Of a DNA stretch of 41,822 nt, positions 82 to 41,822 are shown piece by piece. The notes beneath the pieces were generated by a model. The model worked only from the letters and a program-made list of their open reading frames with translations. It searched no databases and was not told the DNA's origin. Numbering within the stretch: the first letter of the stretch is position 1; every line of letters starts with the position of its first letter. Source of the stretch: Escherichia phage vB-Eco-KMB41; sequence record OR539216.1. The stretch is one strand, 5' to 3'. A program made the translations under genes and the position numbers.

Positions 82-152
82 GCGATTTATCAAATGTTGT
101 TATTATCTTTTCACCGGGCGGCAATGGGTCGCCCACTACCGGAGACGAGACG

Positions 153-401
153 ATGGCAAACTTAACAATCATTGTAAAAGGCGATCAAGAGCGCGGGCGT
201 CAGTGGTCACGCCACTTTAAAAACCTGCTCCCGGCGTTCGTGAAAACTGGCACAGTTAAGCGCCATCTCTCATGGAAAGCGCCGGAGTTAACAGGCGAGG
301 AGCCGGAACTGGAGGAGCGCGTGGACGAGTTCACCACACGCGGCGAGTACGAACTGAATCGCCTGATCCACCGTAACAAGATCCGCGCCGACGAATATTA
401 A
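153..401 (+). CDS. hypothetical protein (82 aa)
   Basis: ORF with GGAGACGAG SD-like stretch upstream; no recognisable motif. Confidence 0.55.
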   Translation: MANLTIIVKGDQERGRQWSRHFKNLLPAFVKTGTVKRHLSWKAPELTGEEPELEERVDEFTTRGEYELNRLIHRNKIRADEY

Positions 402-406
402 CAGCC

Positions 407-422
407 TGGCCCTTCGGGGCCA
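407..422 (+). promoter_or_regulatory. Intercistronic GC hairpin with UUCG tetraloop (GGCCC-TTCG-GGGCC), immediately 5' of SD
   Basis: Stem-loop followed by CCCAGGAGC and ATG at 441; near-identical cassette recurs at about 13193..13225. Confidence 0.45.
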
Positions 423-440
423 TCCACCCAGGAGCTACTT

Positions 441-803
441 ATGGCAATTACAGTTAACACTCGTTTCCCGACATACACGGACGCTCTGATCGACTCGCAT
501 CGCGTCCAGGCGCTTCTCCGTGTGAACACATGCGCGAAGCTGGCCCCGGTATCGTGCAACGTGTACGAGCGCGAGAACAAGGGCGAAAAGCTGGGGTTCG
601 GCTACGTGCTGCGCGTCGGTCCGATCACAATCCACTGTAGAGGGATCACCCGGTACTCCGTGGACTACCACGACGAGGGGAGCGGCTGGACTTGCGACGC
701 GGTGACGGCGGAGGACGCTATACAAGAGGCTTACGAGTACCTGGCGAAGCGCCTCCAGTGTCTCCAGCTTGGGATCGCCATCCTGTCGGACGCTGCCGAA
801 TGA
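441..803 (+). CDS. hypothetical protein (120 aa)
   Basis: ORF with AGGAG SD about 7 nt upstream; ATGA stop/start overlap with the next ORF. Confidence 0.6.
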   Translation: MAITVNTRFPTYTDALIDSHRVQALLRVNTCAKLAPVSCNVYERENKGEKLGFGYVLRVGPITIHCRGITRYSVDYHDEGSGWTCDAVTAEDAIQEAYEYLAKRLQCLQLGIAILSDAAE

Positions 804-2275: not shown

Positions 2276-2793
2276 TCGCCGCCCTCCGGTTGTTCCTCTC
2301 GACTCACTGGCGCGTCGTGCTGCTGGCTCTTGTCGTGCTGCTGGCGCTGGGGGGATCTTTCTGGGCTGGCTCGGCGTGGACCGATCGGGGCTGGACCGCT
2401 CGCGACAATGCTCGGATCGCGAAGGAATCCACCCAGGAGGCGAACGCACAAGCCGCCGCCCGTATCATTGAACAAGGCCGGGCCATCGCCCGCGAGGAGT
2501 CCGTAAAATATGCGAACGCACAAGCCGCAAAAGCTCGCGCTGATTCTGCCGCTGCTGGCGCTGCTCTTAATCGGTTGCTCGAACGAGCCAGCAAGGAAGC
2601 CGCCAGACGCGAAGCCGCTGATCAGACCGCTTCCCTCGGAAGGGCGTCAGGGGAAAAGACCGCCCGAATGTATTCCGAGTTGCTCGAAGGGACTGGAAAG
2701 ATCGCTCGACGGTATGCTGATATAGCGGAGAAGGCGATCACCGCCGGGGAGGTGTGCGAATTGAACTACGACGCGGTAGAGCGTCAGCAATAA
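2272..2793 (+). CDS. Rz: i-spanin (Rz-like)
   Basis: N-terminal TM segment then long Ala/Arg/Glu-rich helical periplasmic domain; follows endolysin with overlapping start; contains an embedded +1-frame lipoprotein ORF. Confidence 0.8.
   Translation: MIAALRLFLSTHWRVVLLALVVLLALGGSFWAGSAWTDRGWTARDNARIAKESTQEANAQAAARIIEQGRAIAREESVKYANAQAAKARADSAAAGAALNRLLERASKEAARREAADQTASLGRASGEKTARMYSELLEGTGKIARRYADIAEKAITAGEVCELNYDAVERQQ
2510..2725 (+). CDS. Rz1: o-spanin (Rz1-like outer-membrane lipoprotein), embedded in Rz
   Basis: Signal peptide with lipobox LLIGC and Pro-rich mature part, wholly inside the Rz gene in another frame. Confidence 0.8.
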   Translation: MRTHKPQKLALILPLLALLLIGCSNEPARKPPDAKPLIRPLPSEGRQGKRPPECIPSCSKGLERSLDGMLI

Positions 2794-3651: not shown

Positions 3652-3683
3652 AAGGAGCCGCTTTTTAAGCGGCCCTTTTTTTT
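3652..3683. terminator. Terminator hairpin (GCCGCTT-loop-AAGCGGC) flanked by A- and T-runs
   Basis: Stem-loop with T9 on plus side and T-rich tract on minus side; lies between two minus-strand genes. Confidence 0.6.
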
Positions 3684-4652: not shown

Positions 4653-4976
4653 TTAAGCTCCTTTGCTTTCCAGTACGTCGATCACTTTGGTGTAGAAAAC
4701 TTCTTTCGCGCTGAGGGCGGTCAGGCACTCCTCGCGGGTCCGCTTCTTCTCAATACACCAGTAGCAACGGCACAAAGCGGCGCGGAAATAATCCAGTTGC
4801 GGGTCGCTCTTATAATGCGCCTCCAGCTTCTGATTAAGCTCGGCCTCCATCATGGCCTTAAGACCTTTCAGTGACGCCTTACTGGTGCGGATCAGGGTGG
4901 CGTATTTGTGGGCGAAGGCGCGGACCTCTTTCGCTTCCGCCGGGGTGTATTTGATTGTGTTCGGTACTGTAGCCAT
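4653..4976 (-). CDS. hypothetical protein (107 aa)
   Basis: Start set at MATVPN (GAGGA SD upstream); the longer ORF form to 5039 would run through the promoter-like element. Confidence 0.65.
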   Translation of the reverse strand: MATVPNTIKYTPAEAKEVRAFAHKYATLIRTSKASLKGLKAMMEAELNQKLEAHYKSDPQLDYFRAALCRCYWCIEKKRTREECLTALSAKEVFYTKVIDVLESKGA

Positions 4977-5031: not shown

Positions 5032-5050
5032 TTTAGCAAAAAGTGCTATT
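5032..5050 (-). promoter_or_regulatory. Palindromic box site 2 (TAGCA-AAAAG-TGCTA)
   Basis: Same oriented box, followed about 22 bp downstream (minus sense) by TATTAT, then SD and ATG of 4653..4976. Confidence 0.45.
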
Positions 5051-5054
5051 TGAT

Positions 5055-5076
5055 AAAAAGGCCCCGGAGGGCCTTG
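5055..5076 (-). terminator. Rho-independent terminator (minus sense: GGCCC-TCCG-GGGCC + TTTTT)
   Basis: GC hairpin followed by T5 on the minus strand, right after the stop of 5079..5819. Confidence 0.6.
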
Positions 5077-7412: not shown

Positions 7413-7438
7413 AGCCCCCGCGCCGGGGCTTTTTTTTT
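7413..7438 (+). terminator. Plus-sense intrinsic terminator-like hairpin (AGCCCC-loop-GGGGCT + T8) inside a minus-strand operon
   Basis: 6-bp GC stem followed by T8 on the plus strand only; abuts the primase stop codon. Confidence 0.45.
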
Positions 7439-8255
7439 ACCCGAACGCGCCAGCCAGATCTCCCCCTATGCAAGCCCTCCCCGTCCTGTCGTAGCCGTAC
7501 AGGAAAACCTCGTCCGGGTCAGTGTAAACGAACCGGATCTCCCGATCGCCGTCGTAGATCGCCGAAGCCTGGACGGCGTTCATAGGCCGGAACGTCAGCC
7601 AGACCTCCGCCTCCCCTCGCGCCGCCACGTTCACGGCATGAGCCGGATCCGCCACGAGATACACCGGAGCGTCCGGCGCTGGGTGGATCAGTCCGACCGC
7701 GCCCCACGTTGGCCCGCCAGCGGCAAACACCACGGACCTGTCGGAGCCGATCTTCGCAACGTTGCACCACGGCCCCAGGGATCCCCCCAGTGGACGAGCG
7801 CATGGAACATACAGGAAGCCGTCCCGCATCGCGCCTTTAGCCATGACTCGCTCGACGTCCTCCGGGGAGAGTTCCCAGTCCTGCGCGGGCTTGTCCTGCT
7901 GCCGGGCATACTTGCGGGCCTCTTTGACGATCGTCTCCCGCTTCTCCGGGGTGAGTCCGCCTATCCAGTCGCCCAGGTCGTTGATCGCCTCGTTGAACGG
8001 CTGCGATCGGCTGGTCATAAACCAAAACATGCCATCACGAGCGCCACCGCACGAGCCGGAACAGTACCCGAAGCCCTCGGCCTTTTTCGTCTGCTGCTTA
8101 TGGCCCCAGCGAAAGCGATCGGTCCCGCCACAGATCGGGCATGGCTGGTGATTGCCGTTAAACGCCTTGCGGTCCCATCCACAGAGATCGAGGAGCGCCT
8201 GTTCCCATTTGCCGGGCATCGCCGCGAGAACGTCCTCTTTTTTATAAATTGCCAT
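7437..8255 (-). CDS. DNA primase (zinc-binding)
   Basis: N-terminal CPICGG...DRFRW zinc-ribbon typical of phage/plasmid primases plus a second Cys cluster; divergent from the helicase gene. Confidence 0.7.
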   Translation of the reverse strand: MAIYKKEDVLAAMPGKWEQALLDLCGWDRKAFNGNHQPCPICGGTDRFRWGHKQQTKKAEGFGYCSGSCGGARDGMFWFMTSRSQPFNEAINDLGDWIGGLTPEKRETIVKEARKYARQQDKPAQDWELSPEDVERVMAKGAMRDGFLYVPCARPLGGSLGPWCNVAKIGSDRSVVFAAGGPTWGAVGLIHPAPDAPVYLVADPAHAVNVAARGEAEVWLTFRPMNAVQASAIYDGDREIRFVYTDPDEVFLYGYDRTGRACIGGDLAGAFG

Positions 8256-10835: not shown

Positions 10836-10865
10836 CCCTCTCACATTCACCAGTGAGAGGGTTTT
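10836..10865 (+). terminator. Hairpin CCCTCTCAC-loop-GTGAGAGGG + TTTT (weak terminator or attenuator)
   Basis: Perfect 9-bp stem between the VRR-NUC stop and the exonuclease start. Confidence 0.45.
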
Positions 10866-12636: not shown

Positions 12637-13185
12637 ATGGCATCACGCGGCGTTAACAAGGTGATTCTGGTTGGCAATTTGGGCCAGGATCCCGAAGTGC
12701 GTTATATGCCGTCGGGTGGAGCGGTGGCGAACATCACGATCGCCACCTCTGAATCCTGGCGCGACAAGCAAACGGGCGAACAGAAAGAACAGACGGAATG
12801 GCATCGCGTCGTTCTGTTCGGGAAGCTGGCGGAGGTCGCCGGGGAGTACCTGAAAAAAGGCTCACAGGTTTACATTGAGGGCCAGCTTAGGACGCGCAAG
12901 TGGACGGACCAAAGCGGCGCGGAGAAATACACGACTGAGGTCGTCGTGAACGTCGGCGGCACTATGCAAATGCTCGGCGGGAAGCGTGAAGGTGGTCAGT
13001 CTGGGGGGAACGGACCTACCCACTCCGGCGGCGGTGGCAATTCTCGCAATTCTCCGGGCCGTGGCGCGACGAACTCGCAAAATCCGGGCAAGGGTAGCGG
13101 GTCAGGGTCTGCGCCTCGTGGTGGCTCTCCTGCTGCGTCTGGTGGCGAGCCTCCCCTGGACTTTGACGACGACATACCTTTTTAA
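12637..13185 (+). CDS. ssb: single-stranded DNA-binding protein
   Basis: Canonical OB-fold SSB N-terminus ([41 protein letters not shown]), Gly-rich linker and acidic C-terminal tip DDDIPF. Confidence 0.95.
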
Positions 13186-13192
13186 CAGGTGA

Positions 13193-13206
13193 GGCCCTTC
13201 GGGGCC
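13193..13206 (+). promoter_or_regulatory. Intercistronic GC hairpin with UUCG tetraloop (GGCCC-TTCG-GGGCC), second copy
   Basis: Identical hairpin to 407..422, again followed by CCCAGGAGC SD and an ATG (13229). Confidence 0.45.
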
Positions 13207-13228
13207 GATCCTCCCAGGAGCCGACGAG

Positions 13229-13669
13229 ATGAAACAATGCGCCATCTGTCAGACGGTCAAGCCTCTGGAGGACTTCCACAGGAACAAGCGGACGAAGGAC
13301 GGGCGGGATTGCCGTTGTAAGGTCTGCAAGGGGCAAAAGTACCGCGAGTATTACCACGGCGATCCATCCCGGAAGGAGAGGATCATCGCGAACGTTAAGA
13401 CATATCAGGCGGGGCCGGGACGCGAGAAGGCGAACGCCACAAAGTCCCACTATCAGGAGCGCCACCCTAAGAAGCGAAAGGCCCATAATCTGGTCCGTAA
13501 TGCTCTGAGGCGCGGAGAACTCCACAGGGGGCCGTGTGAGGTGTGCGGAGCCGACAAGGTAGTGGGCCACCATGACGACTATGATCGCCCGTTAGCGGTC
13601 CGCTGGTTGTGCGAGAGGCATCATAAAGAGTGGCATCTGGTCCACGGTGAAGCGCTTAACCCGGATTGA
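13229..13669 (+). CDS. HNH endonuclease
   Basis: N-terminal CxxC...CxxC zinc finger and C-terminal HNH core (CEVCG...HHDDYDRP...WLCERHHKEWH). Confidence 0.8.
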   Translation: MKQCAICQTVKPLEDFHRNKRTKDGRDCRCKVCKGQKYREYYHGDPSRKERIIANVKTYQAGPGREKANATKSHYQERHPKKRKAHNLVRNALRRGELHRGPCEVCGADKVVGHHDDYDRPLAVRWLCERHHKEWHLVHGEALNPD

Positions 13670-13716: not shown

Positions 13717-13950
13717 ATGAAGGAGCCTAACATGGCAGAATTAAAGGCCGTTTGCCTCGTGAAGCAAGTCCGAGAAGCGAAAGGCATCCAGCAGAAAGAT
13801 TTAGCGGAGCGAATCGGCATGATCCCGCATCAGTTGAGCCGCTACGAAAACGGGCACGAATTGCCATCTGTAACTAACCTCTGCCGGATCGCGAAGGCGC
13901 TCGACGTCTCGATCGCGGATCTGATTGAAACAGGAGTAAACCACGATTAA
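13717..13950 (+). CDS. helix-turn-helix transcriptional regulator (XRE/Cro-like)
   Basis: HTH signature QKDLAERIGMIPHQLSRYENG and LCRIAKALDVSIADL; alternative start at 13732 has AAGGAG SD. Confidence 0.75.
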   Translation: MKEPNMAELKAVCLVKQVREAKGIQQKDLAERIGMIPHQLSRYENGHELPSVTNLCRIAKALDVSIADLIETGVNHD

Positions 13951-13982: not shown

Positions 13983-14010
13983 GAAGGGGCCAATTAAGGC
14001 CCCTTTTTTT
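13983..14010. terminator. Bidirectional rho-independent terminator (GGGGCC-AATTAA-GGCCCC + T7)
   Basis: Perfect GC stem with T-run on plus side and T-rich tract on minus side, between the convergent HTH and tailspike genes. Confidence 0.8.
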
Positions 14011-16231: not shown

Positions 16232-16258
16232 GAGAAAGGGGGCTTATCGCCCCCGTTG
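16232..16258 (-). promoter_or_regulatory. Intergenic hairpin GGGGGC-loop-GCCCCC upstream of tailspike
   Basis: GC stem-loop between the ejection-protein stop and tailspike start, followed (minus sense) by TTTCTC. Confidence 0.35.
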
Positions 16259-21272: not shown

Positions 21273-21715
21273 TTGGTCCTCTCCTCAAAAAAATTACTTC
21301 CGCCATGTTACCGTCCGCCAATTGTACAAGCTGCGGGGCGCTTTCAACAAATCCCACCTTTCGGACCACGTTCCGCGCGTGTCGGTGTGACATGAGAACA
21401 GGGACGCGGATCGCATAATGGCCCCAGTGAGCCAGAAAAGCCTCGCAAGCCTCGCGTGACCGTCTGCGTCTGGGTGGATCCATCGCCATATGACCATCGA
21501 TCCCGCCTTCGTCGTTTGCCATGATGGCGAACACGCAACGCCATATGACCATCGATCCCGCCTTCGTCGTTTGCCATGATGGCGAACACGCAACATTTTT
21601 CCCACAGAAAATATTTTGCCTCGACGTGGCGAGGCCATTCCGGCAAGCCCCAGGCGTGGAGGAGGTCCACGCCGGAGTCTGGCACGAGTTCGATCATCTC
21701 TCCATAGTCCATCAT
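21256..21715 (-). pseudogene. virion gene at the P22 gene-14 position, frameshifted by an exact 55-bp tandem duplication
   Basis: Three overlapping minus-strand ORFs in different frames; peptide CVFAIMANDEGGIDGHMA is encoded twice, once per repeat copy; removing one copy would give a single ~134-aa ORF. Confidence 0.55.
21484..21593. repeat. Exact tandem direct repeat, 2 x 55 bp (GCCATATGACCATCGATCCCGCCTTCGTCGTTTGCCATGATGGCGAACACGCAAC)
   Basis: Two identical adjacent copies read directly in the sequence; 55 is not a multiple of 3. Confidence 0.85.
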
Positions 21716-24761: not shown

Positions 24762-24790
24762 ATAAAAAAAGGGGAGCCAATGGCTCCCCC
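24762..24790 (-). terminator. Rho-independent terminator after coat gene (minus sense: GGGGGAGCC-loop-GGCTCCCC + T7)
   Basis: Long GC stem followed by TTTTTTT on the minus strand just downstream of the coat stop. Confidence 0.75.
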
Positions 24791-27107: not shown

Positions 27108-27235
27108 CGTAGATCCTCACTTTGTTACATACGCGATGTATTTCGCCCATCGGTGGCGGGAGTAAGTTTAAGCGAGGGCGGCGGGAAAATGCAAATAGGG
27201 GAGATCGCGATTAACGATCCCCCCAGTGTGGCGGG

Positions 27236-27505
27236 TTATTTCGTGGCGGCTTTTACGAGGGCCTGAGAGAGATAGAGCGCCTCGTGGTGCGGTGGAACCG
27301 AAGCGGGGATCACGTAGTACAGCGCGACGTCCGGGCCTTCTTCGGCGTGGATCCTCTCACTGGCGACGATCCTCCACTTCTCCCCCTCCTCCGGTCCTTC
27401 CAGTATGCCGTCCAGGTCGTGGCGTTCTTCGAGTGTCTGGCCCAGCTTGCGGAGGGCGGACACTCCCCCGCCCGGAAAGGCGAGGTAGTGATGGATTATG
27501 CTCAA
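27236..27505 (-). CDS. hypothetical protein (89 aa)
   Basis: ORF with balanced composition between the 158-aa ORF and scaffold; overlaps upstream gene by 4 nt. Confidence 0.55.
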   Translation of the reverse strand: MSIIHHYLAFPGGGVSALRKLGQTLEERHDLDGILEGPEEGEKWRIVASERIHAEEGPDVALYYVIPASVPPHHEALYLSQALVKAATK

Positions 27506-27978: not shown

Positions 27979-28052
27979 TGTCTCGATCTCTCTGGTTTGG
28001 CGGGGCCGTTCCCCGCCGTTGAAATAACTATAACATTTGATAAAAGACGCGT

Positions 28053-28071
28053 TTTAGCAATTCGTGCTCTT
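28053..28071 (-). promoter_or_regulatory. Palindromic box site 4 (TAGCA-ATTCG-TGCTC, one mismatch)
   Basis: Oriented box followed about 22 bp downstream (minus sense) by TATAGT and a GGCGGGG-loop-CCCCGCC hairpin, upstream of 27502..27978; overlaps the stop codon of 28054..28359. Confidence 0.5.
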
Positions 28072-32556: not shown

Positions 32557-32971
32557 AGCCCAGATCCTGGAATGATCGTTCCGTCATATGGAATAAATGC
32601 CCCACCAGATACGCCTCCGGCTCGTCGTTGTTGGCGTCGTGCGTGAATCCAAGCGTGTCGGCGATGAAGTTCTTAACGTGGACCAGTTCGTGGGCGATGG
32701 TCGTCCGCCAGTGCGGCCCACGCTTTACTCCCACTAAGACCAGTTTCACGCCGTCGTCCGCGTGGTACTCCGTGGCGCTGCCCTGCGGGAAAGGATCAAG
32801 CATGGCCCACCGTGGGAAGCATTCGAGCATTTTCCCCACCATCTCCTCGTCCTGCGGGTCGTAACATACAATAAAGTAAGGGTAAGGTGAGGCGGTGAAC
32901 CATTTCAGGCCCAGCGCCTCCAGTCTGCCGTAAGTGTCCGGCGGTAGCTTATTCTTGCGGGTTCTCGCCAT
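32534..32971 (-). CDS. hypothetical protein with HExxH zinc-metallopeptidase-like motif (145 aa)
   Basis: IAHELVHV followed by EPEAY about 25 residues downstream; sits between TerS-like and TerL with 23-nt overlaps on both sides. Confidence 0.55.
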   Translation of the reverse strand: MARTRKNKLPPDTYGRLEALGLKWFTASPYPYFIVCYDPQDEEMVGKMLECFPRWAMLDPFPQGSATEYHADDGVKLVLVGVKRGPHWRTTIAHELVHVKNFIADTLGFTHDANNDEPEAYLVGHLFHMTERSFQDLGYGKKQKG

Positions 32972-33503
32972 TCAGTCGGGCCTCCAGTGCGTCCAGACGC
33001 TTGACCATCTCGGACATTTCGAACACTTCCGCGCCGTGGCGGATCATCTTCACCATTGCCTCCGCCGCGTCGAACGGTAGCTCCCCATTCGCCACCAGGT
33101 CCTCGATCTCGGTGATACGCTCGGACGGGGTGGATCCGGTCAGTTCAAAGCAATAGGTCGGGCTGGTCGGCTTCGTGTAGGGGATTAAGCGGCTCATGAT
33201 ATCGCGCATCATGGATCCGTCTACCATTGCCATCTGGATCGCTCGCTGGATGAAGATATCCTCCGTAAGTTGGATCTCCTCGTACTCGTCAACCATGATC
33301 GGCTCGCCCGTCTCCGGGTCGCGCTTCACCTCGCCAGTGTTGGGATCGACGTCCTCGACCTTGCGCCCGGTGCGCTCCTTGATGCGGACTTTTTTCAGCG
33401 CTTCGAGGAGTAACGTCCGGTTCTGCTTCGCCCGGCCCCGGCGCTCTGGCTGGTTGTCTTTGGAGAACTTCTTCCCCTTCGTTAAATTCTGTTCGTTAGC
33501 CAC
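32949..33503 (-). CDS. putative terminase small subunit
   Basis: Basic N-terminus (KGKKFSKDNQPERRGRAKQNRTLLLEALKK), acidic helical remainder, two genes upstream of TerL; assignment positional and compositional only. Confidence 0.5.
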   Translation of the reverse strand: MANEQNLTKGKKFSKDNQPERRGRAKQNRTLLLEALKKVRIKERTGRKVEDVDPNTGEVKRDPETGEPIMVDEYEEIQLTEDIFIQRAIQMAMVDGSMMRDIMSRLIPYTKPTSPTYCFELTGSTPSERITEIEDLVANGELPFDAAEAMVKMIRHGAEVFEMSEMVKRLDALEARLNGENPQE

Positions 33504-34439: not shown

Positions 34440-34504
34440 TGTTCGATCTCTCTCGTGGGTGGAAACGGCCCCAGCATATCGCCGGGGCGTACATCATGCA
34501 AGCG

Positions 34505-34728: not shown

Positions 34729-35673
34729 TCACTTTACGACGCGGTAGCGCTTCACGTCGGCCCATTCAACCACGGACGAGTCCAGGGTGACGCGATCGCC
34801 GCTGGTCAGTTCAAGCTCCAGCAACGTGTCGCGGTTGAGAGACTTCGGCGCGTAGCCCCATTCCCACACGGTCCAGCCTTCGTCCTGCTCGCCAGTCTGC
34901 GGACGGTCCAGCAGTACGTCCATGAGTTCGGACGCTGCCGCCACGCGGATCTCCCCGTTGTTGTTCATGCGGTGGATAAGCTGGCGGACCGCTTCGTGGC
35001 GCTTGACGTGCCAGCGGAGGCTCTGTTCCGTCTCCTGGCGCTTGCGCTCGGCGAAGTGGTTCAGGCGATCGCCGTCCGTTTCGCAGTTGGTCAGGCGCTC
35101 GGTCGCCTCTGCCGCCTGGACGGTGTGGCGGAGTGCTGCGGTCGGTAACTTGAACACGTTCCAGTTATACGGGATCCGCTTCTCGTCGCAAGCCTTCACG
35201 TAACGGCCCAGCAGGTCCACGCGGGCCTCGGCGTCCTCTGCTGCCTTGCGGTTGCGCTCGGAGTTCTCGCTGTTCGCCACCAGCGCCCGCGCCCGCTGCT
35301 CGGTGTACTGGATATGCTTCGGCTTGCCCGGCTTCGGGTTGAAGTAGTGCGGGACGTCCTGCGTCCCCAGGATCACGCGAAGGTCCACGTAGTAGCCGCC
35401 GATCCGTTCGTTGTCCTCGCGCATACGTTCCGCCAGCGCTTCCAGTTCGCGCTCGCGGGTCTTGTCGCGCCACTTCTCGGACTCGGAGAACACGCGGGCC
35501 AGCGCCTCGTCGGAGAGGAGCGGGAGGTGATGTTCCGCCAGGTCTGGCTCCGGTTTGAAGCCCTGCGCCATCGCGTCGCGAATGTCGGCGAGGTGGATCT
35601 GGCGAGTGGTAAGGCGTTGACGCTGTTCAATGGTCAGGCAAGCGTAGAGCAAGCCCTGATCGTGTGAGTTCAT
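34729..35673 (-). CDS. hypothetical protein (314 aa)
   Basis: Long ORF with balanced composition and predicted helical content; preceded by GAAA-tetraloop hairpin and CCAGAGGA SD. Confidence 0.7.
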   Translation of the reverse strand: MNSHDQGLLYACLTIEQRQRLTTRQIHLADIRDAMAQGFKPEPDLAEHHLPLLSDEALARVFSESEKWRDKTRERELEALAERMREDNERIGGYYVDLRVILGTQDVPHYFNPKPGKPKHIQYTEQRARALVANSENSERNRKAAEDAEARVDLLGRYVKACDEKRIPYNWNVFKLPTAALRHTVQAAEATERLTNCETDGDRLNHFAERKRQETEQSLRWHVKRHEAVRQLIHRMNNNGEIRVAAASELMDVLLDRPQTGEQDEGWTVWEWGYAPKSLNRDTLLELELTSGDRVTLDSSVVEWADVKRYRVVK

Positions 35674-35718
35674 GCTGTAGATCCTCTGGTTGGTTGGCCC
35701 CTTTCGGGGCCGGGTTGG

Positions 35719-36048
35719 TTAGAACTTGATAGCCGGGATGTAAACGGACTCTTTCGCGCCACCTTTCAGGCTGGACGCTGCCACACATCCCCCGGTGATC
35801 CAGTGCTCCAGGTTGATTTTGCCGCCCGCTGCGTTGATGCGCTCCAGCAGGTGCTCCGCCTGTTCGCGTGTCTCAAAGACCGCGTAATGATAAAGCTCGT
35901 CGTAATAGCTGTCGTATGTAGCGGCGAACAGCATCTTAACGCGGAAGGCCGGGAGGCGCTTCGGCATGTCGCGGCCCACGCGCTCGTCGAAGGCTTTCTC
36001 TGTTTTGCTGTAGAAAAGCGGGGATTCAATTTCGAAGTATGTAGCCAT
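35719..36048 (-). CDS. hypothetical protein (109 aa)
   Basis: Start set at MATYFE (GGAGAC SD); the ORF track's 224-aa form would run through the promoter module and the neighbouring membrane-protein gene. Confidence 0.65.
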   Translation of the reverse strand: MATYFEIESPLFYSKTEKAFDERVGRDMPKRLPAFRVKMLFAATYDSYYDELYHYAVFETREQAEHLLERINAAGGKINLEHWITGGCVAASSLKGGAKESVYIPAIKF

Positions 36049-36120
36049 TTTGTCGTCTCCAGTTGGGCGGGACCATTTCCCGCCTCTGGAAATAACTATA
36101 CAGTGATTTATCAAATGTGT

Positions 36121-36139
36121 TTTAGCAATTCGTGCTATT
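36121..36139 (-). promoter_or_regulatory. Palindromic box site 5 (TAGCA-ATTCG-TGCTA, perfect)
   Basis: Followed about 22 bp downstream (minus sense) by TATAGT, then GGCGGGA-loop-TCCCGCC hairpin, SD and ATG at 36048; overlaps the stop codon of 36135..36416. Confidence 0.55.
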
Positions 36140-36756: not shown

Positions 36757-37033
36757 CGGCTGGTCCCTCCTGCATGTTGTCGGCGACCTGCTGCATATAG
36801 ATCGCGTAAAGGTTCTGGCCTATCGCCAGGATATCCTCCGGGCGGAGCAATGCCCGCGCCGTGTGAGGGTTGGAGAGCGCCGCCACCAGGACGTCCCGCT
36901 GGCGATGGTTAAGCCGGACCTCGCTCCACGGTGCGGAGTTCGCCATCTGGATCACCTGCTCGATCTTGAGGTGGTCGAACCAGACAAGGATCTCCGGCTT
37001 CGGCTCCTGCTCCTGCTGCTCGTCGATCACCAT
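36746..37033 (-). CDS. hypothetical protein (95 aa)
   Basis: ORF in tightly packed co-directional array. Confidence 0.55.
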   Translation of the reverse strand: MVIDEQQEQEPKPEILVWFDHLKIEQVIQMANSAPWSEVRLNHRQRDVLVAALSNPHTARALLRPEDILAIGQNLYAIYMQQVADNMQEGPADGL

Positions 37034-37386
37034 TCGCCCGGCTCCTTCGCGTCGCGGTAGCCCATGATCAGCGCTTGCACGACGTCGAACACGTCAGCCC
37101 TGATCGACTGGTGGAGGAACAGCCCGAAGTGTCGGCGTTGCACTCCGTCCGAGAGGTTCCAGTGTTGGAGGTGGTAGTCATGTAAGACCATCGGCTCCAT
37201 CTTGGGCGGCTCGTCCCTGGTCAGGTCGATCAGCGTGTCGTCGTGCTTGAACTCAATCTCCCTGATCATCTGCGTGTCAGGTGTTACGGTGCGGCGCTTG
37301 CCGTCGAACGGCCCGCCGATCAGCAGGGCCAGCATGTACTCCGGTACGGCTGGCGGCTGGTGGTTGCGGTAATGTGTCGGGTGCAT
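37027..37386 (-). CDS. hypothetical protein (119 aa)
   Basis: ORF preceded by GC hairpin and GGGAGGA SD. Confidence 0.6.
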   Translation of the reverse strand: MHPTHYRNHQPPAVPEYMLALLIGGPFDGKRRTVTPDTQMIREIEFKHDDTLIDLTRDEPPKMEPMVLHDYHLQHWNLSDGVQRRHFGLFLHQSIRADVFDVVQALIMGYRDAKEPGEW

Positions 37387-37431
37387 GGTAGATCCTCCCA
37401 GGATGCCCGGCTCTCGACCGGGCGGTGGTTG

Positions 37432-37707
37432 TTAGATGTTCGCGGCGATGAATGCCAGGACTTCGCGGAGGTGCTTCTCGTCGCGGATAGTGGCTGGCAA
37501 TTCCTCTTTCACGCTGCTGTCGAGATAGATATTGCCATTCCATGTATAAGAGCCGTTCGGGTTGACCAGGTAGGAGAACATCCATTCACAATCGTTATCC
37601 GCTTCCCACACGCACAGCAGGATCTTATCGTCGTCCAGGTCCTCGATCGTCACATCCAGGCCGCGCTTCGCTGCGAATTTCTTGGTGGTTGCGTTGACTG
37701 CTTTCAT
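37432..37707 (-). CDS. hypothetical acidic protein (about 91 aa)
   Basis: Start set at MKAVNA (internal Met of ORF 37432..37764); lies downstream of palindromic box site 6. Confidence 0.6.
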   Translation of the reverse strand: MKAVNATTKKFAAKRGLDVTIEDLDDDKILLCVWEADNDCEWMFSYLVNPNGSYTWNGNIYLDSSVKEELPATIRDEKHLREVLAFIAANI

Positions 37708-37780: not shown

Positions 37781-37799
37781 TTTAGCAATTCGTGCTATT
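37781..37799 (-). promoter_or_regulatory. Palindromic box site 6 (TAGCA-ATTCG-TGCTA, perfect)
   Basis: Followed about 22 bp downstream (minus sense) by TAATAT, then GGGCG-loop-CGCCC hairpin and the ATG at about 37707. Confidence 0.55.
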
Positions 37800-37977
37800 T
37801 ATCCTTTCTCATTCGTCGGAGTGATCGGACCAGATCGACGACGGCCCAGCCAGACGCCAGCAGGAACGGCGCGAGGACCGCCAGCTTTTCCCAGTTGGTC
37901 AGGATCGTGTCGGTCCCCTTCGTCATGCCGATCCAGGCTATCACCAGGACCTCGTAAGCGAACGCGAGCCAGATCAT
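37795..37977 (-). CDS. small membrane protein (60 aa)
   Basis: Two hydrophobic segments and basic C-terminus RSLRRMRKDK. Confidence 0.5.
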   Translation of the reverse strand: MIWLAFAYEVLVIAWIGMTKGTDTILTNWEKLAVLAPFLLASGWAVVDLVRSLRRMRKDK

Positions 37978-38727: not shown

Positions 38728-38749
38728 ACTATATCACCTTTCAATGATT

Positions 38750-38980
38750 AAATCATGGTTACGTGAGGTTTTCATTAAGCCCTCAAAAAGTGCCAGCAAA
38801 TGGCCCCGGTTACATCATTTAAAATCTGTCACCAAATGTTAGTTAAGTGATTGAATTAAATCCGGTTACATTGCAGGTTTCATTGTCTCAAAAAATGTAA
38901 CTTGCGCTTAACTCGGTTACGGTTACAGGTTACATCTCTCTCTATATAGAGAGAGTGTAACTGTCACCGATGTAACCGGG
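38750..38980. repeat. Iteron-like array: at least 8 GGTTAC/GTAACC hexamers (three in tandem at about 38915..38933), TGTCACC motifs and a perfect 20-bp palindrome CTCTCTCTATATAGAGAGAG (about 38936..38955)
   Basis: Read directly; 255-bp non-coding gap immediately downstream of the AAA_25 ATPase gene; hexamer density far above the roughly 1 per 2 kb expected by chance. Confidence 0.7.
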
Positions 38981-38982
38981 CC

Positions 38983-40638
38983 TTAAAAGTCGTTCAGATC
39001 GTCGTCCTGATCCTCCGCTTTTGAGGATGGTTTCCAGTCCGTCGGGAGTGGCTTCTGATCGCGGATTCCACCCAGGAGCGGAGCCGCTTCTTTCGTGGCG
39101 GTCAGCGTCTCGTCTCCGGCGACCTTGATGATCCCCATCGTGTTAGTGGCGTGAAGGAATGCGCGACGGAATGCCGTCTTGTCGATCTGCGGGTCCGCGC
39201 TGTTCCGCGCCCACTCACTGAGCGCCGCCTTTGTCAGCTTCGGAGTGCGGCCTCTGCGCTTGCTGTTGTACTCGTGGACGAAGTTCACCAGTCGGATCGC
39301 GTTCTCCTCCTGCTGGCTGCGCTTCGGCCCCTCGTCGGCCTTCTCCTCCTTGTCGCCAGTCGGTACAGCCTCCAGCGCGTTAATGACGACCAGCGTCCCC
39401 AGGTTGTCGCCAATCTCCCACGCTGCCGGGTTCTGCTGCGCTTCGGGGCGTACTGGCTTCATGCGGGCCATTGCCTCGCGCTTCATCTTGACCAGTTCAG
39501 GCGGGAGCGGGACGGATTGCGTCCGCATGGCGCGAGGAGGGAGGAGCGCACAGCCTTTCGCCTTCGTGTGCTCAATGACAAAAAGCTCCTTGTCCTTGCA
39601 CTTCTTCACCATGATCTCGAATCCGGCGTTTGCCCGGAGGGTTGACGCGCCACGAGCGCCGCGCTCGGTGTCCTTCCCGGTGTGGTGGATCACCATCACG
39701 GCACAGTTGAGCATTTCCGCCAGCTTCGCCGCGTTCGCCATCAGGATCGCCGCCACGTTGTTGTCGTTCTCGTTGAAGTCCTGCCCGCCTACCCATTCGA
39801 TCACCTTGCCGTCCGCGTCACGCTTCGCGGTCTGGCCCACCTTCTGGCCCGCGCTGTTGGCGCTGTAGGTATCAATGACCACGAGGGCCGGTGCGTTCTC
39901 CTCAATGCCGAAGAACGGGGAGGAGAGGACCTTCCCGGCGAAGCGCTGGAGGATCTCCGCGTTATGGAGGGGGACCTGTTCGCCGATGATAAACAGGTTA
40001 TTCAGATCCTTGTTGCCGTTGCGCTTGTACTTCCATCCCGCGTAACGTTCACGGACGCCGCTCGCATCCTCCGGCGCGAAGTACAGGACGGATCCCTGTC
40101 GGACCGGAAGCCCGGCGAAGTCGATCCCGGTGGCGACACAAATCGCCATCTGTAACGCGCAAAAAGTCTTTTTAGCGCCCGACTCGCCGACCAGGAAGCC
40201 CACGGAGCGCTCCGGGACCAGCGACTGGATCACATAGTTAACGGGGGTGATTTTGTTCCCGGCGCGTAACTTGTCCAGGAACTCGTCCGGCTGGTCTGCC
40301 AGCAGTTCGGCGATCGCCTTCTTGTCCTTCTCGCGCTGGTCCTCTGTCGTCTCGCTGCGTGGCTTCGCGACGGGCTTCTGGTTCTCGTCCAGTACGAGGT
40401 CCCACTGGTGATCGTCCTCATTGTCGCCGAACGCGTAAAGCTCCATCTCCGCCAGTGATAGGCCCTGCTCTGCTGCCTGGTCTGCCGCGATCGCCATCTG
40501 CTGGTCCATGTCCGCCTCTGTCGGCTCCGGCGCTGCGTTCAGCCATTCCGGGACGGGTTCCAGACGAGCCTCGCCTGGGAGGATCTGGTCCAGTAGTTCC
40601 TCGCGGGTCGGTTCCTGCTGTTCTTCGTCGTGCATCAT
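38983..40638 (-). CDS. RecA-fold ATPase of the AAA_25/RepA-like type (putative replication initiator or helicase), 551 aa
   Basis: Walker A GESGAKKT, Walker B LVVIDTYS, downstream VMVIHHTGKD motif typical of RepA-like ATPases; acidic N-terminal ~130 aa; flanked on both sides by GGTTAC repeat clusters. Confidence 0.75.
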   Translation of the reverse strand: MMHDEEQQEPTREELLDQILPGEARLEPVPEWLNAAPEPTEADMDQQMAIAADQAAEQGLSLAEMELYAFGDNEDDHQWDLVLDENQKPVAKPRSETTEDQREKDKKAIAELLADQPDEFLDKLRAGNKITPVNYVIQSLVPERSVGFLVGESGAKKTFCALQMAICVATGIDFAGLPVRQGSVLYFAPEDASGVRERYAGWKYKRNGNKDLNNLFIIGEQVPLHNAEILQRFAGKVLSSPFFGIEENAPALVVIDTYSANSAGQKVGQTAKRDADGKVIEWVGGQDFNENDNNVAAILMANAAKLAEMLNCAVMVIHHTGKDTERGARGASTLRANAGFEIMVKKCKDKELFVIEHTKAKGCALLPPRAMRTQSVPLPPELVKMKREAMARMKPVRPEAQQNPAAWEIGDNLGTLVVINALEAVPTGDKEEKADEGPKRSQQEENAIRLVNFVHEYNSKRRGRTPKLTKAALSEWARNSADPQIDKTAFRRAFLHATNTMGIIKVAGDETLTATKEAAPLLGGIRDQKPLPTDWKPSSKAEDQDDDLNDF

Positions 40639-40664
40639 TGTTTAATCACCTCATGGTTACATTA

Positions 40665-40701
40665 CGGGAGACAATGTAACCGCTATTTGTCACCGCGTCA
40701 A
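40665..40701 (-). promoter_or_regulatory. Sigma70-like promoter (TTGACG-17 bp-TACATT) overlapped by inverted repeat GGTTACATT-N9-AATGTAACC
   Basis: Read on minus strand: -35 TTGACG, 17-bp spacer, -10 TACATT, then AGGTGA SD and ATG of the ATPase; the 9-bp-arm palindrome covers the -10 and start region. Confidence 0.5.
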
Positions 40702-40779
40702 TTCAGCGCCAGTAAAGAAAACTCTTTACATCACGGTTACGTTACCTTAAGGTGATAGCCGAACACGACGGAGGTCATT

Positions 40780-41217: not shown

Positions 41218-41822
41218 TCAGATATATCGCAGTAACCGAAGAAGCGGACCAGGACGAGAGCATGGCGTCCCACATCCCGGAGAGTCAGATCGAGCGCATC
41301 GATCGCGCTGCTAATGGTAAGGCTATCCTGATCGTTCGTGAATATCGCGAGAAGTGCCGCGAAGATTCCGAGTGTTACGGTCGGAAGGAATGGCGGATCG
41401 ATGGCTACGAGTCGCAAGAGCGCTACAGCGTGATGAAGTTCGACGACCTGATCGCCTGGCTGAATGGCATCCCGCCGGAGCCGATGGTGGTTGACTTCGA
41501 TCGCCTGTCGCCGGAGGAGCGCGAGAACGTCATGGACAATCTGGTGGCGGCGCGTCATGCCCTGCGCAACGTGAACAGTAAGACCGTACTCCAGCCAGCG
41601 CCAGCGCATCACGTCGGCCTCGACTCGGACGTGTGGGCCGTGGTCAAACTGCTGGAGGCTCGCGAGTGGGCCGAACATTGCACGACGACCGAACTCGGCG
41701 GACGTCTGGAGTCGGAGATCACGAAGCTGGTCGGGACTGAGAACGAAACGGCGGGCAAGCTCAAACGGGCGGAGCAATTGCTGGCGGAGATCCATCACGC
41801 GGTCAATAACGACGGCGGGCTT
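41214..41822 (+). CDS. hypothetical protein, 3'-truncated at window end (203 codons here; continues in frame at 1..66 if the molecule is circular)
   Basis: ATGA overlap with 40780..41217; open to the last base; frame closes exactly at the window end and resumes at position 1 to a TAG at 64..66. Confidence 0.6.
   Translation, partial: MIRYIAVTEEADQDESMASHIPESQIERIDRAANGKAILIVREYREKCREDSECYGRKEWRIDGYESQERYSVMKFDDLIAWLNGIPPEPMVVDFDRLSPEERENVMDNLVAARHALRNVNSKTVLQPAPAHHVGLDSDVWAVVKLLEAREWAEHCTTTELGGRLESEITKLVGTENETAGKLKRAEQLLAEIHHAVNNDGGL

Follow-up and report, generated by a model that had tools for sequence, protein, structure and literature searches.

Conserved hairpin cassettes between the genes of Escherichia phage vB-Eco-KMB41, and a short DNA motif embedded in them

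Four gene junctions of Escherichia phage vB-Eco-KMB41 carry a short GC-rich hairpin between the stop codon of one gene and the Shine-Dalgarno (SD) sequence of the next, and at three of these junctions the spacer also holds a copy of a 10-bp DNA motif. We describe these hairpin cassettes and the motif using the whole of record OR539216.1, a stretch of 41,822 nucleotides that we call the window. The 41.8-kb window is the complete genome of a Murrayvirus-like podophage and has 59% GC. Sequence identity is ~90% with phage ST231, 86-89% with the Murrayvirus genomes of Enterobacteria phage IME_EC2 and Salmonella phage Lumpael, and ~76-79% with Sortsnevirus genomes. Our comparison panel consists of nine relative genomes (L001-L009) and the window, or ten genomes in all. 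The gene map of the window was built from codon usage and agrees with the annotation of the relatives. The expected number of intergenic hairpins comes from dinucleotide shuffles of the same regions.

A sequence-only reading of this genome had picked out the four hairpins, and on inspecting the sequence we found all of them in place. Sites 1 and 2 serve genes on the plus strand. Sites 3 and 4 belong to genes on the minus strand, a switch that had been missed, and we therefore read them as the reverse complement. On the sense strand, all four sites follow one plan: TAA followed by C, a C/A-rich linker of 4-8 nt, a G/C stem of 5-7 bp with its loop, a C/A-rich spacer of 6-9 nt, a strong SD sequence, another 5-9 nt, and ATG. 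The cassettes are 39-45 nt long, and the gene on the same strand starts 16-22 nt past the hairpin. The loops at sites 1-4 are UUCG, UUCG, GAAA, and CGAGA; those of sites 1 and 2 are closed as C(UUCG)G and that of site 3 as C(GAAA)G. With 5-7 GC pairs, the four stems have energies of -9.6 to -13.3 kcal/mol.

Cassette 1 (399-443, plus strand) begins with TAA at 399-401 and the linker CAGCC, followed by the hairpin UGGCCC-UUCG-GGGCCA (407-422), a motif copy (ATCCACCCAG, 422-431), the SD sequence AGGAG (430-434), and ATG at 441. Cassette 2 (13183-13231, plus strand) lies between the gene for SSB and a zinc-ribbon HNH-like gene. Here the TAA at 13183-13185 ends the SSB gene, and it is followed by the linker CAGGUGA, the hairpin GGCCC-UUCG-GGGCC (13193-13206), the motif copy ATCCTCCCAG (13208-13217), AGGAG (13216-13220), and ATG at 13229. 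In cassette 3 (35671-35721, minus strand), TAA and the linker CCAACCC precede the hairpin GGCCCC-GAAA-GGGGCC (35696-35711), which is followed by AACCAACC, the SD sequence AGAGGA (35682-35687), and ATG at 35673. Cassette 4 (37384-37434, minus strand) consists of TAA, CAACCACC, the hairpin GCCCGGU-CGAGA-GCCGGGC (37405-37423), AUCCUGGGAGGAUCUACC, and ATG at 37386. A second segment of cassette 4, AUCCUGGGAGGAU, forms a weak hairpin over the SD sequence; read on the plus strand, it is a motif copy (37392-37401). (For the main hairpin of site 4, an alternative fold that has a GAGA loop and bulges out one U comes close in energy, -12.0 versus -12.7 kcal/mol.) Sites 1, 2, and 4 thus have one motif copy each in the spacer, and the copy at site 4 is reversed and supplies the SD sequence.

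Across the ten genomes we found 52 compact cassettes of this kind, 29 of them distinct in sequence, without a U tract. Their hairpins begin 4-8 nt past the stop codon and finish 16-28 nt ahead of the start codon, and their two linkers are 83% and 74% C+A, as compared to 48% genome-wide. Genes of the window end more often in TAA plus a following C than in any other stop context (13 of 59 genes), and in the hairpin cassettes this context is almost universal.

The sequence-only reading described sites 1 and 2 as a hairpin in near-identical contexts of 40 bp. The sharing is real: both sites have TAACAG, a linker of 3-4 nt, GGCCCTTCGGGGCC, and (G)ATCC[A/T]CCCAGGAGC, and GGCCCTTCGGGGCC with at most one mismatch occurs 3 times in the window versus 0.06 expected. 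Much of the common sequence, though, lies outside the hairpin and is a copy of a genome-wide motif plus a consensus SD sequence. The recurrent context is a composite of the hairpin, the consensus SD sequence, and (at sites 1, 2, and 4) a separate copy of the motif (G)ATCCNCCCAG.

Perfect GC-rich hairpins are ten-fold denser between genes than within them (7.6 per kb intergenic versus 0.72 per kb coding), and the 19 intergenic hairpins compare to 1.47 +/- 1.15 in the shuffles. Folding of the intergenic regions, which had been suggested as a check, turned out better for sites 3 and 4 and weak for sites 1 and 2: the z-scores of the minimum free energy (MFE) of single sequences are -0.87, -0.08, -2.5, and -1.6 for sites 1 to 4. 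Because the z-scores are weak at sites 1 and 2, energy by itself proves nothing, and the case rests on the comparison with relatives. No Rfam covariance model matched anywhere in the window at the gathering threshold. That the hairpins are chance palindromes in a GC-rich genome is hardly credible: the z-scores of sites 1 and 2 do lie within the range of the shuffles, but the idea is already refuted by the ten-fold intergenic enrichment, by conserved orthologs with compensatory changes, and by a strand bias in the loops.

The hairpins are conserved throughout Murrayvirus and Sortsnevirus, and their loops vary within a class. Orthologs of site 1 have UUCG, UCCG, UACG, UGCG, and once CACG as their loop, so that otherwise only the N of UNCG varies. 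At site 2, most relatives have UUCG or UCCG (Kc237 has a 6-nt loop). At site 3, the loops are GAAA, GCGA, and GCAA, which are of the GNRA class, as G[A/C][A/G]A. The stems also change in a compensated way. Compared to its relatives, the window lacks one C from the 5' arm of site 1 and one G from the 3' arm. The site 3 stem is GGCCCC/GGGGCC in the window and GCCCCG/CGGGGC in IME_EC2, with two compensated pairs between identical flanks. When 15 cassettes are aligned without gaps, each of the 90 cells of the stem is paired, 2 of the 6 pairs are altered on both sides, and the covariation score is 0.279, as compared to 0.054 in shuffles. We infer from the variation of the loops within their classes, together with the compensatory changes in the stems, that selection acts on the RNA.

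The strand on which the loops are found points the same way. Taking in all hairpins with 4-nt loops, 10 orthology groups have UNCG or GNRA on the transcribed strand and 1 has the reverse-complement class (p = 0.012, binomial test). A purely DNA-level palindrome would not predict this asymmetry, which therefore argues for action at the level of RNA. Beyond the two genera, the same cassette architecture is found in Skarpretter (with a UGCG loop) and in a Klebsiella siphophage of unrelated morphology (with a UACG loop). A protein-guided search with the HNH gene gave 9 loci. A scan of IMG/VR for the hairpin plus the spacer gave mostly chance matches, with three further relatives among the matches listed.

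We also sampled 102 GGCCCC-UNCG-GGGGCC hairpins from viral contigs in IMG/VR. An open reading frame ended just upstream 52 times in the UNCG orientation and 19 times in the reverse orientation; a U-rich tail followed 49 times versus 5 times; and the layout of stop codon, hairpin, SD sequence, and start codon was seen 20 times in the sense orientation and once in antisense. Judging from these contigs, GGCCCC-UNCG-GGGGCC is a common strand-specific RNA element of phages, with about half of its instances being predicted terminators and about a fifth being putative intercistronic cassettes. The comparison with relatives thus supports the view that the hairpins of the window act as RNA. To this extent, the sequence-only proposal of stabilization sites survives: action at the RNA level fits with in-class loops on the transcribed strand and with compensating stems.

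We favor, with a probability of roughly 55%, the reading that the four sites belong to a set of compact intercistronic cassettes, found throughout the lineage, which function at the RNA level and serve as read-through boundary elements in polycistronic mRNA. In each cassette, a hyperstable GC hairpin of 5-7 bp, capped by a UNCG or GNRA loop, would be set between a UAA-C stop and a strong SD sequence, with flanking C/A linkers that should be unable to pair nearby, and the hairpin would be the one stable structure that can form there. Lacking a U tract, the cassette would be read through by E. coli RNA polymerase. Once the downstream RNA is cut, the hairpin would block 3'-to-5' exonucleases and so protect the upstream cistron (such as that of SSB, ahead of site 2), while the downstream cistron would gain a structured 5' edge just beyond the 30S footprint. 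The hairpin would sit where the mRNA enters a terminating ribosome, and it would lie immediately beyond the footprint of the initiating 30S subunit. (This positioning argument draws on established sizes of ribosome footprints.)

Both parts of this proposal have precedents. Hyperstable C(UUCG)G hairpins were reportedly first noted in intercistronic mRNA of phage T4, by Tuerk et al. in 1988 (PNAS). Like the hairpins in the window, the UUCG and GNRA hairpins of phages have a short GC stem on the sense strand, lie between cistrons, have no coding role, and are thought to stabilize RNA. Those in the window, which are known by their sequence, differ from those of T4 in that they are part of a stereotyped cassette (UAAC and CA linker, hairpin, CA linker, SD sequence) in a podophage of 59% GC. 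Stem-loops that lie between cistrons or at 3' ends act as barriers to decay by blocking PNPase and RNase II, as with the repetitive extragenic palindromic (REP) sequence of malE-malF and in the puf and pap operons. These barriers are also stable hairpins downstream of a cistron, without a U tract, and they are linked to differential expression within an operon. However, REPs are imperfect palindromes of ~35 nt that are found across the host genome, while the hairpins in the window are phage-specific perfect stems of 14-19 nt without a match in Rfam. The stem-loops of the ompA leader and of the phi10 leader of T7 stabilize RNA from its 5' terminus; this likeness holds only for another set of hairpins in the window (the box-module hairpins, below), not for the compact cassettes at the four sites, as these lack a promoter.

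If this reading is correct, the hairpins mark boundaries within operons in little-studied coliphages and in Salmonella and Klebsiella phages, which could be used in annotation and engineering. The cassettes could also help to tell true U-tract terminators from read-through hairpins, and they would be compact natural parts that combine a stop codon, an insulating hairpin, and a ribosome-binding site.

The main alternative from the sequence-only reading was that the hairpins are attenuators. The four sites do have the GC-rich stem-loop of an intrinsic terminator, but efficient intrinsic termination by E. coli RNA polymerase also requires a U tract, and the 8 nt past each of the four stems contain just 0-2 U. 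Because there is no U tract, the four sites are not canonical terminators, and in the sense of intrinsic termination the attenuator proposal finds no support for the compact cassettes. A scan for terminators flagged only site 4, on the plus strand, which is antisense to the genes. As compared to Rho-independent terminators, the four sites have the same GC stem and UNCG loop but differ by lacking the U tract and by having a gene on the same strand 16-22 nt further on. The hairpins could still be leaky terminators or attenuators that lower downstream transcription. This would fit with the U-rich tail behind the same stem in 49 of the 102 sampled hairpins and behind the UNCG-looped hairpin at 5058-5075, and with hairpins that follow genes such as SSB, which might need more expression than their neighbors. 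We consider it unlikely given the 0-2 U past the four stems and given that genuine U-tract terminators are found elsewhere in the same genome (at 1381-1401, 2796-2815, 3655-3675, 5058-5075, 13984-14005, ~24771-24789, and 27198-27224, from the terminator scan and the sequence). The latter imply that the phage uses the canonical form when it terminates.

The sequence-only reading also proposed RNA processing sites. The stems of 5-7 bp are too short for an RNase III site of the T7 type, which has a stem of ~20 bp and often an internal loop, and the linkers, being rich in C/A and poor in U, do not resemble RNase E sites. No promoter hexamers were found in the four cassettes (the best matches are 3-4 of 6). 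Programmed read-through to give a fusion protein was considered because, at all but one of the four sites in the window, the downstream ATG shares the reading frame of the preceding stop codon. But the length of the gap modulo 3 varies (at site 1, it is 39 nt in the window and 41 nt in relatives), so this is excluded, as the relation between the reading frames is not conserved in the orthologs. A role as an insulator of the ribosome-binding site found no support: the predicted probability that the SD sequence is unpaired was not raised relative to RNAs that lack the hairpin or in which one arm is replaced by its complement.

The hairpins might instead be operators for an RNA-binding protein, whether an antiterminator as in N/boxB, a translational repressor, or a block to scanning ribosomes. 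GNRA-type loops on short GC stems do resemble boxB, a position 6-10 nt before the SD sequence would suit control of translation, and cassette 4 has its second weak hairpin over the SD sequence. However, no boxA-like element (CGCUCUUA-like) was found within ~47 nt upstream of the four hairpins, which sets them apart from a lambdoid nut site. The loop class differs between sites and the letters vary within a site, which argues against a single sequence-specific reader. In the flanking proteins that we scanned, we found no RNA-binding domain, and the sites are scattered among operons rather than being confined to the region just after early promoters. An operator role is therefore quite unlikely.

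The cassettes are also found where the genomes are mosaic. BLAST homology to Murrayvirus genomes breaks at 434, within the SD sequence of site 1, and the gene downstream is an allele with 44% identity. Further breaks in homology lie at 35696-35724 for site 3 and 37382-37438 for site 4, so that 3 of the 4 sites have breakpoints. ST231 and Lumpael have an extra gene between two cassettes (781-821 and 1137-1181 of L002) that both end in GAGGATCTACCATG. At cassette 4, the 40 nt over the hairpin and SD sequence are identical in the relatives that were matched, including one sortsnevirus, and these 40 nt adjoin at least three different downstream genes among the relatives. The cassettes coincide with points of gene swap, gain, or loss because they share 15-40 nt of sequence. 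As for genes that distinguish the window, those at 4653-4976 and 37795-37977 are missing from the closest relatives, and the one at 37027-37386 is missing from IME_EC2; the boundaries of the window-specific genes are intergenic modules or junctions with overlapping start and stop codons.

These junctions recall the promoter early stem-loop (PeSL) cassettes of T4-type phages, which are ~100 bp and AT-rich and which contain a strong sigma-70 early promoter and terminating stem-loops (PMC2839356, PMC4122927). Like PeSLs, the cassettes in the window are repeated intergenic sequences that run from an upstream stop codon to a downstream SD sequence and ATG, with a G/C stem-loop, and they may likewise be associated with ORFans and with junctions of insertion, deletion, or replacement. 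They differ by being 39-45 nt and C/A-rich and by lacking both promoter and U tract. It might be that the cassettes act primarily as DNA linkers, providing short homologies with which the Erf/ExoVIII system of the phage swaps, inserts, and deletes gene cassettes. Besides the precedent of the PeSLs (PMC2839356), this would account for the breakpoints at 3 of the 4 sites, for the bracketed extra gene of ST231 and Lumpael, and for the identical 40 nt of cassette 4 beside at least three downstream genes, and the flanking genes are mostly ORFans. But it leaves the strand-specific tetraloop classes and the substitutions within a class unexplained, there is no promoter in the cassette, the excess of breakpoints over other junctions is not significant, and recombination could be a by-product of the conservation of the cassette sequence. 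We view a DNA-level function as improbable. The coincidence with gene-swap junctions would carry the PeSL idea, in which conserved intergenic linkers guide the exchange of modules, over to podophages whose cassettes do not bear promoters.

Several points weigh against read-through boundary elements in mRNA. The MFE z-scores of sites 1 and 2 lack significance, being within the range of the shuffles. The predicted accessibility of the SD sequence is not improved by the hairpin, so a role in insulating the ribosome-binding site has no computational support, although folding a GC-rich RNA of 160 nt to equilibrium does not model mRNA under translation well. The covariation alignment was anchored on the structure, from sequences that were picked as hairpins, and the covariation by substitution amounts to few events because the stems are almost invariant G/C. 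Breakpoints were found at 5 of 8 cassette junctions versus 7 of 26 tight junctions, which is suggestive only. Finally, our literature search found no study of regulatory elements or transcriptomes for Murrayvirus- or Sortsnevirus-type genera.

The hairpins are real and conserved, but they are an ordinary and known kind of element; the motif array embedded in them is the part that deserves follow-up. No other gapped 10-mer of the genome is as over-represented as the motif ATCCNCCCAG, which has 26 exact copies (16 on the plus strand and 10 on the minus strand) versus 0.38 +/- 0.55 expected, or 31 copies if either A or T is allowed as the first base. In 20 copies the motif is preceded by G, which creates a GATC site. 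Examples are at 422-431, 2347-2356 (minus strand), 2427-2436, 7679-7688 (minus), 7781-7790, 13208-13217, 24294 (minus) and 24537, 31800 (minus) and 31882, and 37392-37401. The relatives have 18-26 copies each, except that Skarpretter has 12 and C130_2 has 11. The motif is absent from 50 kb of E. coli K-12 that we sampled and from the siphophage K70PH128C1, despite the homologous replication module of the latter.

The copies are conserved in position across four genera (Murray-, Sortsne-, Skarpretter- and Hungarioviruses). Of the sites that can be aligned, 19-23 of 23-26 are intact in Murrayvirus and 9-15 of 16-22 in Sortsnevirus. In the Sortsnevirus alignments, identity per base is 0.80-1.00 within the motif, as compared to ~0.75 in its flanks. 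The copies are also ordered. The strand alternates beyond chance (31 sites in 25 runs, p = 1e-4), and the median distance from a minus-strand site to the next plus-strand site is 426 bp, versus ~2.0 kb for other intervals (p < 1e-4, Mann-Whitney test). This gives 12 inverted pairs, each consisting of CTGGGNGGAW, 80-820 bp, and WTCCNCCCAG. The clusters are quasi-regular and lie ~2.3 kb apart in the window, with a coefficient of variation of 0.35 versus 0.57 under the null (p = 0.009). Even spacing of the clusters is also seen in Lumpael, IME279, and Skarpretter (p <= 0.001).

We rejected several explanations for the motif. It is not a signal in RNA or protein-coding sequence, as the 20 copies inside genes are 10 sense and 10 antisense and in all frames. 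It is not Chi or a KOPS element (GCTGGTGG or GGGNAGGG), as the sequence differs and there are 0 copies in the 50 kb of E. coli K-12. Nor is it a recombination hotspot, with 4 breakpoints within 50 nt versus 3.1 expected (p = 0.38). The idea that the motif is read by the replication module (primases, helicase, and methyltransferases) is weakened by K70PH128C1, a single genome, which has the homologs but not the motif. The zinc-ribbon HNH gene, the terminase genes, and the virion genes are among those that all motif-bearing phages share and that this siphophage, which has no motif copies, lacks.

Zinc-ribbon HNH proteins of phages are known to be site-specific nickases (PMC3592412). Arrays of a nick consensus are known from other podophages, namely tf (14 copies of TACTRTGMC) and phiKMV, and also from T5, on one strand only (PMC3517423). 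Like those, the motif in the window is non-palindromic, 9-10 bp, over-represented, specific to the phage, and found in genes regardless of frame. In contrast to those, ATCCNCCCAG is present on both strands (16 plus and 10 minus), as inverted pairs at quasi-regular spacing, and it is known here from sequence only. We see an even chance that the array is a recognition site for a DNA enzyme of the phage, with the HNH protein encoded at 13229-13669, after cassette 2, or the terminase (whose putative TerS is encoded at 32949-33503) as candidates from gene co-occurrence. Such an enzyme might nick both strands, or the motif might be a self-marking of phage DNA for packaging or replication. If this is true, then the non-coding cassettes would double as cost-free landing pads for the motif. 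A search of the literature for the motif string found nothing, and we know of no earlier description, for these phages, of inverted pairs at conserved positions and quasi-regular spacing that are built from a 10-bp site which the host sample lacks; this would be the larger pay-off.

Phage C130_2 (L264) has annotated direct terminal repeats of 284 bp, at 1-284 and 41492-41775, with one motif copy in each (at 80 and 41570). The motif might thus be connected with the ends of the genome. As for other short sequences, GATC occurs 487 times in the window (about once per 86 bp), which is roughly 3 times the expectation from composition, and the phage encodes a Dam-like methyltransferase. The canonical Chi sequence GCTGGTGG has 8 copies, 6 of them on the minus strand, versus 1.3 expected.

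The window has other hairpins as well. On the minus strand at 34468-34488, the intercistronic hairpin GCCCCGGCG-AUA-UGCUGGGGC has no U tract and is followed by a CA-rich linker and an SD sequence. Another compact intercistronic hairpin, CCUCGCCU-UUCC-GGGCGGGG, is at 27466-27485 (minus strand), upstream of a gene whose start is uncertain. The VRR-NUC and exonuclease VIII genes are separated by a 9-bp hairpin (10836-10861, plus strand, z = -4.7) whose 3' arm, GUGAGAGGG, contains the SD sequence. Its stem is retained in relatives, with a G-U change. It is a candidate translational control element, of a different sub-type that would sequester the SD sequence of the exonuclease VIII-like gene. The hairpin GGGGGC-GAUAA-GCCCCC (16238-16254, minus strand, z = -3.7) precedes the tailspike gene and is followed by UUUCUC; it may be of a terminator-like or attenuator sub-type.

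A further set of hairpins belongs to modules with a palindromic box, (A)TAGCAC-N5-GTGCTA or TAGCAC-N5-GCTA, which are at 64-78, 5034-5048, ~7340, 28055-28069, 36123-36137, and 37783-37797. The box is centered near -42, ~30 nt upstream of an extended -10-like sequence (TGnTATAGT/TATTAT). It looks like a class II activator site or a repressor binding site at predicted phage promoters, and the XRE-type helix-turn-helix protein encoded at 13717-13950 is a candidate for binding it. Just 3' of the first of these modules is the hairpin GGGCGGC-AAUGG-GUCGCCC (116-134, plus strand), and its equivalents at 27999-28017 and 36066-36084 (minus strand) also have AAYGG pentaloops. All three start ~10 nt past the extended -10-like sequence and are directly followed by an SD sequence. 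They are probably a sub-type distinct from the four cassettes, being predicted stem-loops at the 5' end of a transcript.

The sequence-only reading placed such a hairpin in every palindromic-box module. This is so for these three modules, where the hairpin lies just before the SD sequence, but the box near 37784 has another arrangement, and at the boxes near 5035 and 7340 the hairpin follows the stop codon of the upstream gene. Ahead of the former is the UNCG-looped hairpin AAGGCCC-UCCG-GGGCCUU (5058-5075, minus strand), which is followed by UUUAUC and resembles an intrinsic terminator. Ahead of the latter, the hairpin at 7413-7430 lies just after the stop codon of the upstream gene and has no U tract on the sense strand.

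Two observations concern other parts of the window. Of the 18 copies of YGTAACC, 11 sit in 38728-38982 and 40639-40779, on either side of the primase-helicase gene (38983-40638), and there is also a palindrome, CTCTCTCTATATAGAGAGAG; the arrangement looks like an iteron array or a putative replication origin. Finally, the region of a small gene at 21294-21638 contains a 55-bp tandem duplication (21481-21590) that is 98% identical and in perfect register.

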